NCBI GenBank assembly: GCA_028710695.1 | Contig: JAQTTP010000002.1 | Location: 92,373-124,372, forward strand | DNA: 32,000 nucleotides | Reading direction: 5' to 3' | Source of the DNA: Candidatus Iainarchaeum sp. | GTDB lineage: Archaea; Iainarchaeota; Iainarchaeia; Iainarchaeales; 0-14-0-20-30-16 | In this document: positions 4,116 to 32,000 of the stretch, in pieces | Position numbering within the stretch: the first letter of the stretch is position 1 | Layout: the number at the start of each line of letters is the position of its first letter | Notes under the pieces: generated by a model | Database searches by the model: none | Seen by the model: the letters and a program-made list of their open reading frames with translations, nothing else | What the model was told of the DNA's origin: nothing | Program-made: the position numbers and the translations under genes

Positions 4116-4352
4116 TAATAAGCCCCCAATTAATATTATATAAGTATAGTCAGGAGCCTTTATATATTTTGTTTTTATGTGCAGCACATAAGGCAATAAT
4201 AACAATAGTCAGACAAAAAACAATAAAAAATTGCTTTGTGGCATTTATGCCACTGTTTTTCTTTTGGAAGACTGCAGCTTTTCCAAGAATCTTTTTTGCA
4301 AAGCAAAAAAATTCAGGGGCTAAAGCAGTTTGTGAAACAAACTGGCTTTTTC

Positions 4353-4371
4353 CTTTTCCAAAAAAGAAAAG
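4353..4371 (-). terminator. tRNA-Cys 3' trailer: short hairpin embedded in an oligo-T run
   Basis: The minus strand after the tRNA reads TACCAAGCTTTTCTTTTTTGGAAAAGG. The stem is CTTTTC/GAAAAG. The 22 nt AAGCTTTTCTTTTTTGGAAAAG are identical to the tRNA-Ser trailer. Confidence 0.5.
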
Positions 4372-4378
4372 CTTGGTA

Positions 4379-4450
4379 AGCAGGAGATGGGAGTTGAACC
4401 CACAATCGCCCGGTCTGCAGCCGGAAGCATTACCATTCTGCTACTCCTGC
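4379..4450 (-). tRNA. tRNA-Cys (GCA)
   Basis: Hand-folded 72 nt: acceptor GCAGGAG/CTCCTGC, D-arm GCAGAATGGTAATGC, anticodon stem TCCGG/CCGGG with loop CTGCAGA, T-arm GTGGG TTCAACT CCCAT, discriminator T. No encoded CCA. Confidence 0.9.
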
Positions 4451-4477
4451 CCCGAGAACAAACTTTCCCGTTAGAGT

Positions 4478-4508
4478 TGTATGTTGAACCAAAGGTTCAA
4501 GCATACTT
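4478..4508. repeat. 31-nt element copy A (TGTATGTTGAACCAAAGGTTCAAGCATACTT), an imperfect dyad
   Basis: Identical over 31 nt to 4768-4798. Arms GTATGTTGAACC / GGTTCAAGCATAC give 12 bp with one bulged G and an AAA centre. It lies between a TATA-like A/T box (4509-4523) and tRNA-Cys on the minus strand. Confidence 0.9.
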
Positions 4509-4523
4509 GCTTTTTTTTATAAG
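4509..4523 (-). promoter_or_regulatory. TATA-like box candidate for tRNA-Cys (minus strand CTTATAAAAAAAAGC)
   Basis: A/T box directly upstream (in minus sense) of 31-nt repeat copy A and about 60 nt upstream of the mature tRNA-Cys 5' end. The tRNA-Met trailer T-run lies further upstream, which argues for an independent transcription unit. Confidence 0.35.
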
Positions 4524-4526
4524 ACT

Positions 4527-4542
4527 GCGACATTTATGTCGC
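4527..4542. other. Perfect inverted repeat GCGACAT-TT-ATGTCGC
   Basis: 7-bp arms. It is a sequence relative of GTGGCAT-TT-ATGCCAC at 4238-4253, sharing the CATTTATG core. Confidence 0.7.
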
Positions 4543-4565
4543 CAGAGTTTTCTTTGGGAGGCTGT

Positions 4566-4589
4566 AGCTTTCTTTTACAAAAGAAAGCT
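4566..4589 (-). terminator. tRNA-Met 3' trailer hairpin with T-run
   Basis: The minus strand after the discriminator reads CTAAGCTTTCTTTTGTAAAAGAAAGCT. This is an 11-bp palindrome AGCTTTCTTTT/AAAAGAAAGCT with a 2-nt centre. Confidence 0.55.
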
Positions 4590-4592
4590 TAG

Positions 4593-4732
4593 TGCCAAGG
4601 GGGAGACTTGAACTCCCGTCCTCCAGATTTCTCTCCGAAATCTGGTTAAATCATCGCTTGCAAAGCAAGCTCATAATTCATAACCACGAATAGTTATGAG
4701 TCTGGCGCTCCAACCAACTGAGCTACCTTGGC
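4593..4732 (-). tRNA. tRNA-Met (CAU; elongator-type, or tRNA-Ile2 if C34 is modified) with a 66-nt intron
   Basis: Acceptor GCCAAGG/CCTTGGC, D-arm GCTC AGTTGGTTG GAGC, anticodon stem CCAGA/TCTGG with loop CTCATAA, T-arm GGGAG TTCAAGT CTCCC, discriminator A. The exons sum to 74 nt. G1-C72 and a non-GGG anticodon stem argue against an initiator. Confidence 0.8.
4629..4694 (-). other. tRNA intron at the canonical 37/38 position (boundaries ambiguous by +/-1 because of flanking A residues)
   Basis: Minus-strand sequence is ACTATTCGTGGTTATGAATTATGAGCTTGCTTTGCAAGCGATGATTTAACCAGATTTCGGAGAGAA. Internal helices are TGGTTA/TAACCA and GCTTGC/GCAAGC. TTATGAG is complementary to the anticodon loop CTCATAA. 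Confidence 0.7.
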
Positions 4733-4734
4733 CC

Positions 4735-4754
4735 TAGCCTTTTACAAAAGGCTA
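4735..4754 (-). promoter_or_regulatory. tRNA-Met 5' leader palindrome abutting the mature 5' end
   Basis: Minus strand reads TAGCCTTTTGTAAAAGGCTA: 9-bp arms with a 2-nt centre, ending 2 nt before tRNA position 1. It shares the CTTTTGTAAAAG core with the trailer palindrome. Confidence 0.6.
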
Positions 4755-4767
4755 AGTTTGCCAAAAG

Positions 4768-4798
4768 TGTATGTTGAACCAAAGGTTCAAGCATACTT
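4768..4798. repeat. 31-nt element copy B (identical to 4478-4508)
   Basis: Exactly 290 bp from copy A. It is again flanked on its minus-strand upstream side by an A/T box (GCTAAATAAAATT, 4799-4811) and lies upstream of tRNA-Met. Confidence 0.9.
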
Positions 4799-4900
4799 AA
4801 TTTTATTTAGCAAAACTGAGCCAGACTTGTAAAATTCTCATGTACAAGGATATATTCCTATCTTTAACCTTTTTTAGATAAGAAAGACTTATATTCTATT

Positions 4901-31775: not shown

Positions 31776-31803
31776 AAACATTTTGCTGTTAGGCAAAATG
31801 TTT
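31776..31803. other. Perfect 11-bp hairpin AAACATTTTGC-TGTTAG-GCAAAATGTTT
   Basis: Lies between the tRNA-Ser trailer and the annotated start of 30610-31773. A second hairpin, AACTTTTC-TTT-GAAAAGTT, follows at about 31817-31835. Confidence 0.7.
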
Positions 31804-31846
31804 CTGGGTCAGAAGAACTTTTCTTTGAAAAGTTGCTTCTTACTGG

Positions 31847-31874
31847 AGCTTTTCTTTTCCAAAAAAGAAAAGCT
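31847..31874 (-). terminator. tRNA-Ser 3' trailer hairpin with T-run
   Basis: The minus strand after the discriminator reads TCTCTAAGCTTTTCTTTTTTGGAAAAGAAAAGCT. The stem AGCTTTTCTTTT/AAAAGAAAAGCT is 12 bp. Confidence 0.55.
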
Positions 31875-31880
31875 TAGAGA

Positions 31881-31964
31881 CGCAGGGAAAGGGATTCGAA
31901 CCCTTGCCTCCTTACGGAGACTCGGTCTCAAGCCGAGCGCGTTGGACCACTTCGCTACCCCTGC
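31881..31964 (-). tRNA. tRNA-Ser (UGA), type II with long variable arm
   Basis: Acceptor GCAGGGG/TCCCTGC (one G-U pair), anticodon stem CTCGG/CCGAG with loop CTTGAGA, variable arm TCTCCGTAAGGAGGC, T-arm AAGGG TTCGAAT CCCTT, discriminator G. 84 nt. Confidence 0.9.
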
Positions 31965-31967
31965 CTA

Positions 31968-31985
31968 GCCTTTTTCAAAAAAAGG
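31968..31985 (-). promoter_or_regulatory. tRNA-Ser 5' leader palindrome abutting the mature 5' end
   Basis: The minus-strand upstream flank is TTTTGGCAGACTGTGCCTTTTTTTGAAAAAGGCTAG. The stem is GCCTTTTT/AAAAAGGC. This flank parallels the tRNA-Met leader TTTTGGCAAACTTAGCCTTTTGTAAAAGGCTAGG. Confidence 0.6.
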
Positions 31986-32000
31986 CACAGTCTGCCAAAA

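Follow-up and report, generated by a model that had tools for sequence, protein, structure and literature searches.

The BoxC, PIT and TMECO repeats of bacteria are built of three blocks, a third strand and the two arms of a hairpin, and have the make-up of an intrastrand triplex (Holder et al. 2015, PMC4666352). Here, a three-block repeat cassette is described from an archaeon, Candidatus Iainarchaeum sp., in which it borders tRNA genes and other stable-RNA genes. It was recognized at tRNA-Met, tRNA-Cys and tRNA-Ser in a stretch of 32,000 nucleotides (the window; G000:C15:92373-124372 in our designation of genome and contig, the contig ending at window position 32000), which an initial annotation had singled out for the repeats and palindromes around these three genes.

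Other systems have also to be considered. REP and BIME elements are short palindromic extragenic repeats that occur in mosaic clusters with other hairpins and are mobilised by RAYT (Y1/HUH) transposases. In Nanoarchaeum equitans, as Randau and colleagues reportedly found in 2008, the tRNA genes are leaderless, with the promoter at a fixed distance, and there is no RNase P. The bulge-helix-bulge motif consists of two 3-nt bulges on opposite strands with a 4-bp helix between them. Archaeal rRNA and tRNA processing stems carry bulge-helix-bulge motifs at which the splicing endonuclease cuts (Schwarz et al. 2020, PMC7714728). Cleavage of MALAT1 requires a leader-trailer helix in which the A-tract pairs with the U-rich 3' trailer and an A is bulged (PMC8457004).

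Cassettes at the ends of stable-RNA genes

Three parts make up the cassette: an outer run of pyrimidines, ~12 nt of conserved spacer (GG.RAC.TAG-like), and a hairpin with a T-rich 5' arm and an A-rich 3' arm. Profiles built from tRNA flanks and searched genome-wide placed copies of the leader type at the 5' ends of 17 tRNAs and copies of the trailer type at the 3' ends of ~21, with few strong matches elsewhere; the flanks noticed in the window, which the initial annotation had proposed to look for at all tRNA genes, are thus not confined to it. Trailer copies also lie directly 3' of RNase P RNA, of signal recognition particle (SRP) RNA, of a C/D small RNA (sRNA) and of one structured RNA downstream of the 23S rRNA. 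Four orphan copies each stand just downstream of a co-directional protein gene, and one copy lies inside the tRNA-Tyr intron. The tRNA set comprised 38 candidates identified by ARAGORN with introns, and the 32 without long introns were confirmed by Rfam; tRNA-Met(CAU) was not seen by ARAGORN in its default mode and was detected by Rfam and by ARAGORN -i. All copy numbers are lower bounds, because repeats break assemblies. Contig ends fall exactly on cassette boundaries at window position 32000 and at the end of G002:C70.

Orientation and offset were obtained by a three-block search (outer run, spacer, hairpin). Of the 34 cassettes that adjoin a stable RNA, 16 stand at its 5' end and 18 at its 3' end, and every one points inward: the hairpin lies next to the gene, at an offset of -1 to 6 nt from the mature end, and the T-run lies farther out. 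Trailers are therefore cassettes of the leader type in inverted orientation, and this accounts for the relatedness of leader and trailer palindromes remarked on in the initial annotation. Twenty T-arm/A-arm hairpins reach 11 bp or more, and 19 of these stand at a stable-RNA gene or near one; of 22 controls in which the A-rich arm comes first, 0 are tRNA-adjacent. A general terminator style of the genome was ruled out, since T-arm/A-arm hairpins of this length hardly occur away from stable-RNA genes; the fallback originally offered, a genome-specific terminator and leader style, comes closer to the truth but is too weak for a specific repeat cassette at stable-RNA borders. Several genes are one-sided: four tRNAs have only a leader and about nine only a trailer, and RNase P RNA, SRP RNA and the C/D sRNA are likewise trailer-only.

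These flanks are best explained, with an even chance in our view, as separate copies, each independent of the others, of a lineage-specific repeat cassette of three blocks that frames stable-RNA genes and would have a role at either end. On the 3' side the cassette would probably be a transcript-end element and on the 5' side a leader removed by RNase P, or it would be tolerated as such. No publication on this repeat family was found in the literature. About half of the tRNA genes, together with RNase P RNA, SRP RNA and the C/D sRNA, carry a self-folding cassette a few bases from their mature ends, in an organism of less than 1 Mb; that so small a genome keeps such elements would imply either a useful role or a very successful parasite of RNA processing sites.

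The internal design of the cassette follows a mirror rule. The outer pyrimidine run is a mirror, not a direct repeat, of the pyrimidine arm, so that it runs 5' to 3' parallel to the purine arm, with T for A and C for G. Across a gap of ~12 nt the mirror match is perfect in 15 of 17 informative cassettes, a set that includes copies from two other genomes of the family (G002 and G006). Mismatches of the outer run averaged 0.35 to the mirror of its own arm and 1.53 to that of non-own arms (permutation p<5e-5), whereas the direct-repeat alternative left 1-3 mismatches in most cassettes (p 0.98). One mismatch remains in the Ser-GGA trailer copy whichever reading is used, and in the L006 copy (genome G001) the outer run picked is probably the 3' end of the neighbouring tRNA, an artefact. 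Within the window, the Met trailer is informative and the Met and Ser leaders, with outer runs of T4-5, are not; the leader copies of Phe, Thr-GGU, Arg-UCU and Ile-GAU follow the mirror rule on the sense strand. This relation between outer run and arm shows that each unit retains the capacity for a single strand to form a hairpin together with a third, Hoogsteen-paired strand, the arrangement of a pyrimidine-motif fold-back triple helix. Such three-way co-variation, which a helix of this type requires and which is described for the bacterial BoxC/PIT/TMECO repeats (PMC4666352), is rare sequence-level evidence for a triple helix in archaea.

The structure of leaders was judged from per-copy folds rather than from an alignment. 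RNAalifold predicted no pairs on 19 aligned leaders, because loop and arm lengths vary, and pair counts on a hand-made bracket string for the aligned leaders did not exceed those of shuffles, because the arms are low-complexity T/A. A test of own versus non-own arm complementarity was discarded as circular, since the hairpins had been chosen for complementarity. The stems of real cassettes hold too few mismatches for a comparison of G-T with A-C strand bias (RNA versus DNA folding).

In the window, the 31-mer, the AAGCTTT(T)C hairpins of the trailers and the hairpins that end the leaders 1-2 nt short of +1 were recovered where the initial annotation had put them and are far beyond chance; the A/T boxes were recovered as well (Table 1). 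The 31-mer is present in two identical copies, with none expected in 100 shuffles; this cassette also precedes Cys and His in G000, and G002 has two copies, one with compensatory stem changes. tRNA-Ser(UGA) carries the same leader and trailer types as tRNA-Met, as had been noted, and the 22 nt common to the Cys and Ser trailers are exact (4353-4374 and 31854-31875), with none expected by chance. The Cys leader had been called non-palindromic; it ends in a 6-bp hairpin, CGGGAA/UUCUCG. The Cys trailer palindrome appears imperfect because a 66-nt two-hairpin insert with a flanking 9-nt direct repeat splits it, and when the insert is taken out in silico a canonical Cys trailer results, with a 9-bp hairpin, a spacer and a purine tract. 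The upstream hairpin of the Ser leader is not visible, this leader being truncated by the contig end at 32000.

Table 1. Features of the Met-Cys and Ser loci and related sites (window positions, or contig and position in G000 where a contig is named).
Feature	Position	Strand	Remarks
A/T box	4799..4810	-	directly upstream of 31-mer copy 1; sole TATA-like stretch within ~75 nt of tRNA-Met
31-mer copy 1	4768..4798	-	13-bp hairpin, one bulged C; separate cassette
Met leader outer T-run CTTTTGG	4761..4767	-	
Met leader conserved spacer GGCAAACTTAG	4752..4762	-	between T-run and hairpin
Met leader T-arm/A-arm hairpin (palindrome)	4735..4754	-	9 bp; ends 2 nt before +1
tRNA-Met(CAU)	4593..4732	-	66-nt intron; Rfam, ARAGORN -i
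Met trailer hairpin	4566..4589	-	11 bp, 100% complementarity; begins 3 nt past discriminator; 5' arm is a T-run
Met trailer spacer and purine tract AAAGAAAA	4548..4565	-	on plus strand, outer T-run TTTTCTTT, 8/8 mirror of hairpin arm
Short G+C hairpin, ATAAA loop	4527..4543	-	closes Met trailer array
A/T box	4511..4522	-	upstream of 31-mer copy 2
31-mer copy 2	4478..4508	-	
Cys leader hairpin, second type (CGGGAA...UUCUCG)	4453..4470	-	1 nt before +1; type also precedes Leu-CAA, Glu-UUC
tRNA-Cys(GCA)	4378..4451	-	
Cys trailer hairpin in present, imperfect form	4344..4374	-	first 22 nt identical to Ser trailer
66-nt two-hairpin insert in Cys trailer	4287..4352	-	9-nt direct repeat TTGGAAAAG at 4353-4361 and 4278-4286
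Cys trailer remainder	4238..4278	-	spacer GCAGTCTTCC, purine tract AAAAGAAAAA, closing G+C hairpin (4238-4253)
Ser(UGA) leader cassette	31965..32000	-	T-run, spacer GGCAGACTGTG, hairpin with T7 run (palindrome 31966-31987); <=3 nt before +1
tRNA-Ser(UGA)	31881..31964	-	
Ser trailer hairpin	31847..31874	-	12 bp; begins 6 nt past tRNA
Two hairpins of other repeat families	31811-31840, 31776-31803	-	downstream of Ser trailer
Second hairpin family, sites	31776-31803; C3:40006, C3:66560, C15:73782, C23:18696, C5:10611, others		
Stable-RNA genes without leader cassette (examples)	C23:21537, C19:92869, C19:29951, C5:1156		A/T box ~25-33 nt upstream

Companion cassettes (the 31-mer and short G+C hairpins) often stand beside the main one. 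An upstream hairpin with conserved halves TATCGAG ... CGAAGATA occurs in the G000 leaders of Ser-GCU, Lys-CUU, Glu-CUC, Arg-CCU and Leu-UAG, and it also adjoins tRNAs in other families of the order (G010 and G016; L063 and L061), sometimes 3' of the tRNA; a very stable mini-hairpin motif, GCGAAGC, recurs in its arrays. A k-turn reading of the GGGYTATCGAG...CGAAGATGGRCCC hairpin was rejected, as manual pairing broke the k-turn rules. A second dispersed hairpin family (AAACATTTTGC-loop-GCAAAATGTTT, with CCAGA/TCTTGG-like flanking arms) occupies at least eight intergenic sites, between tandem and between convergent genes.

Two RNAs at these borders deserve mention. The 66-nt intron of tRNA-Met (4633-4698, minus strand) holds RUGAUGA-like boxes, AUUAUGAG and GCGAUGAUU, and the tRNA-Met introns of relatives have clearer AUGAUGA / UGAUU boxes at the same place; C/D guide RNAs in introns are known for tRNA-Trp, and this intron may be another bearer of one. 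The orthologous intron in G003 has a T-arm/A-arm hairpin in place of the C/D-like boxes. The structured RNA downstream of the 23S rRNA 3' end is a candidate of ~215 nt (G000:C26:54683-54900, minus strand) that has a TATA-like box to itself, pairs its 5' end with its 3' end and is followed at once by a canonical trailer cassette. Rfam gave no match to it, 5S rRNA included; it may be a new RNA, or else a 5S rRNA that has diverged or been interrupted.

Promoters, transcript ends and RNase P

In cassette-free tRNAs, and likewise in RNase P RNA, SRP RNA and the C/D sRNA, an A/T-rich box is centred ~25-33 nt before the mature 5' end. This distance leaves room for little or no leader, and stable RNAs that lack a leader cassette are probably transcribed with almost none, though RNase P is encoded. 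At that spot, tRNAs that carry a leader cassette are A/T-poor, and they turn A/T-rich only upstream of about -65; at Met and Cys, the upstream A/T box abuts the 31-mer. The displaced promoter suggests that leader cassettes are most likely transcribed and then removed by RNase P, which would explain why leader copies are found only on tRNAs. One genome would then hold two classes of tRNA gene, near-leaderless ones and ones whose promoter the repeat has displaced behind a long structured leader. The palindrome or the outer T-run was also considered as a TATA box and rejected, since the palindrome centre lies ~12-13 nt from +1 and the region around -26 to -30 is A/T-poor in genes with a cassette; a role of the cassette as promoter would be senseless at the inverted 3' copies.

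Oligo-T is the archaeal terminator signal. The 5' arms of trailers are T-runs that begin ~3-8 nt after the RNA, and trailers have at least 5 T shortly past the mature 3' end, which predicts a terminator role for them. Cassette-free tRNAs are mostly followed by a plain T-run just after the tRNA, at the same place as the trailer T-arm.

If the cassettes are elements of transcript ends, a trailer copy would set an oligo-T stop a few nt past the mature 3' end and, read from outside, would hold two T-runs facing incoming transcription. A leader copy would displace the promoter to at least 65 nt upstream, giving a long structured leader for ordinary RNase P to remove. The base of a terminal helix would be the target to which insertion or gene conversion brings the cassettes, which would then be kept or co-opted. 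They would offer a concrete system in which to study how archaeal stable-RNA transcripts start, end and are insulated.

The initial annotation had proposed to check whether RNase P or HARP is encoded. RNase P RNA was found at 108.5 bits, aligned over the full archaeal model including the specificity domain, and Pop5 at 36.3 bits, adjoining a weak Rpp30 match; a PIN_5/HARP search of the genome gave no match, and the splicing endonuclease, EndA, is encoded. At G000:C5:40102-40781, the Rpp30-like frame (17 bits, 201 aa) stands directly upstream of the clear Pop5 gene, and the two are probably the RNase P Pop5-Rpp30 pair, with a divergent Rpp30. Intron-bearing tRNAs, the archaeal RNase P RNA and EndA identify the host, with a genome of 0.90 Mb in 27 contigs, 32% G+C and an estimated completeness of 86%, as a small DPANN-type archaeon.

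Distribution, mobility and competing explanations

Of the 6 other family genomes, 5 contain the leader motif; in 34 genomes drawn from other families within the same order, it does not rise above background. Among ~35 tRNAs from five of these other families, one T/A hairpin was found within 10 nt of +1 and two right after the tRNA, and the sampled tRNAs mostly have ordinary promoters and T-runs; the cassette in its present form is family-specific. The exact leader motif has two archaeal matches among public genomes, one labelled Candidatus Diapherotrites and one further metagenome-assembled genome.

At orthologous tRNA-Met genes, a leader hairpin stands 3-4 nt before +1 in 6/6 family genomes, with differing cassette variants and upstream hairpins. 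Trailers differ among these genomes as well, and that of Cys in G001 is similar to that of Met in G000. The same 66-nt insert lies within the A-arm of two trailers, that of Cys and that of Leu-CAA (G000:C19 ~91660-91745), and the 9-nt direct repeat around the Cys insert looks like a target-site duplication. An orphan cassette is the exact point at which homology to G001 stops, and a contig of G002 ends at the same point. From the swapping of variants, this breakpoint and the Cys insert it follows that the cassettes are a recombining, mosaic repeat family; they are probably mobile.

Several observations weigh against the view that the cassettes serve as end elements. We infer the start sites, the stop sites and the removal of leaders alike from sequence. 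The leader hairpins of Ser, Pro and Asp hold T-runs of 5-8 nt, which should stop archaeal RNA polymerase just before the tRNA and so fit poorly with a transcribed leader. A terminator needs neither perfect arm complementarity nor a mirror third strand, which leaves part of the design unexplained, and in trailer copies the pyrimidine third strand is antisense, so that an RNA triplex would need antisense transcripts or single-stranded DNA. The presence of cassettes shows no correlation with the orientation of neighbouring genes, as far as crude gene calls tell, and a search for a Y1/HUH transposase (PF01797) found no match in this genome, estimated to be 86% complete. The possibility that cassettes are 3' untranslated region elements of neighbouring genes was rejected, neighbour orientation being the same for tRNAs with and without them.

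It is possible, if unlikely, that the cassettes are purely selfish or neutral repeats that insert or gene-convert beside helix bases without any role for the host, a triplex fold serving their own spread. Their mosaic arrays, the variant swapping between orthologous sites, the insert with its direct repeat and the homology breakpoints at cassette edges would all be expected of such repeats, as would the copy in the tRNA-Tyr intron and the orphan copies between genes, and bacterial BoxC/PIT repeats showed no promoter or terminator activity (PMC4666352). However, the tRNA-Met leader hairpin is held at the same offset in all six family genomes despite sequence turnover, the trailer T-arm occupies the exact place of the cassette-free T-run, and the Y1 search of the incomplete genome revealed no mobilising enzyme.

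A small probability attaches to the proposal that leader cassettes cap an RNA 3' end in the manner of MALAT1, with U-rich strands around a stem-loop like those of the ENE and an A-arm like the genomically encoded A-tract. Once RNase P had cut at +1, the upstream RNA would have its 3' end locked in a U.A-U triple helix and out of reach of exonucleases; ahead of the cut, a brief pairing of the A-arm with the U-rich trailer might occur. The parts follow one another in the same order, namely U-rich strand, stem-loop, U-rich strand, A-rich tract, RNase P site and tRNA-like body (PMC8457004), and the A-arm ends 0-6 nt before +1 at 16/16 leader copies. The sense-strand mirrors of the Phe, Thr-GGU, Arg-UCU and Ile-GAU leaders, the RNase P encoded in the genome and the four orphan copies just 3' of co-directional protein genes also fit, and the leader-trailer helix with a bulged A drawn by the initial annotation resembles the pre-cleavage helix of MALAT1. 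Order and spacing thus agree at the 16 leaders, but not at the trailers, about half of all copies, whose antisense third strand is left unexplained. Moreover, 7 of the 16 leader copies have a divergent upstream neighbour and hence no co-directional upstream gene or mRNA to protect, the leader outer runs in the window are only T4-5 and would give 4-5 triples, and the leader-trailer pairing has no gene-specific fit and is impossible in three genes. A switch of this kind cannot explain the inverted 3' copies. Equally doubtful is the wider idea of leader cassettes as a prokaryotic counterpart of MALAT1/MEN-beta, a mobile U.A-U (C+.G-C) triplex module that would colonise tRNA ends and introns. The cassettes do let one ask whether triple-helix-capped ends made by RNase P exist beyond vertebrates and their viruses.

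It is improbable that the cassettes act in DNA, as boundary elements in which H-DNA or a cruciform is extruded by the negative supercoiling behind stable-RNA genes and works as a supercoil sink or a two-sided polymerase barrier. Inverted placement on both flanks would be natural for such a strand-symmetric role, homopurine/homopyrimidine mirror repeats are the defining motif of H-DNA (PMC4666352), and the association is with the most heavily transcribed class of genes. H-DNA needs only the mirror repeat, though, not a complementary A-arm, and the fixed offset of 0-6 nt indicates RNA ends rather than DNA topology.

The reading put forward by the initial annotation was that leader and trailer form a long helix which, like the rRNA processing stems, holds the tRNA ends and directs a non-standard maturation. 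A helix of ~9 bp with one bulged A, as described there, can indeed be drawn in the GGCTAG/CTAAGC class (Met and Ser), and a comparable leader-trailer helix is functional in MALAT1 (PMC8457004), but the pairing is not fitted to the gene. In the 12 two-sided genes, the proposed proximal clamp averaged -5.76 kcal/mol for own pairs and -5.94 for non-own pairs (permutation p 0.58), with p 0.99 for the distal parts and whole flanks, and in Asp, Gly-GCC and Arg-CCU the pairing reaches only -0.7 to -2.8 kcal/mol. When pre-tRNA-Ser, -Met and -Cys are folded to minimum energy, separate local hairpins remain around the cloverleaf; for Ser, the forced clamp (-53.1 kcal/mol) is ~8 kcal/mol worse than the minimum-energy fold (-61.2). 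The best clamps for Ser and Met have a 1-nt and a 4-nt bulge, both on the trailer strand, which is not the bulge-helix-bulge geometry that the initial annotation had suggested looking for. Since the flanks are independent, with leader-only and trailer-only genes common, since own pairs have no advantage and the fold is costlier, and since that geometry is missing and the genome encodes RNase P RNA together with Pop5 and EndA, neither the clamp nor a non-standard route of tRNA maturation is supported, and we regard both as highly improbable.

Comparison with known systems

Immediately 5' of the hairpin, many cassette copies carry a tetranucleotide that is GTAG-, CTAG- or TTAG-like, a feature that recalls REP/BIME elements, of which, however, the cognate Y1 transposase (PF01797) was not found here. 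We know of no REP with a mirror third strand or with a fixed position against the ends of RNA genes. The cassette-free tRNAs and other stable RNAs, with their A/T box ~25-33 nt upstream and a very short leader or none, resemble the genes of N. equitans; in contrast to that archaeon, RNase P is kept here, and about half of the tRNAs have a long structured leader cassette.

As in the archaeal processing stems (PMC7714728), the flanks of these genes are complementary in principle and EndA is encoded. Unlike those stems, the cassettes form their own local hairpins, lack gene-specific complementarity and do not have two 3-nt bulges spaced by 4 bp.

With MALAT1 and MEN-beta, leader cassettes share the linear order up to the RNase P site and the tRNA-shaped RNA (PMC8457004). 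MALAT1 is a single vertebrate locus with experimental proof, whereas the cassettes are known from their sequence; half of them are inverted on the 3' side, many leaders have no upstream gene, and those of the window would form 4-5 triples.

By architecture, the closest published kind is the bacterial intrastrand-triplex repeat, which is not known to have a function or a connection with RNA genes. Like BoxC, PIT and TMECO, the cassettes are dispersed, intergenic, three-block repeats capable of a triplex and found in an unusually variable genetic context (PMC4666352), and they have the parallel mirror third strand beside a hairpin that marks the PIT/BoxC kind, the triple helix itself being predicted. 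The bacterial repeats have been described from bacterial genomes only, with no consensus in the sequence or function of the flanking genes (PMC4666352). The cassettes, in contrast, are archaeal and T/A-rich, have a conserved spacer of ~12 nt, and lie flush and inward against the ends of stable RNAs.

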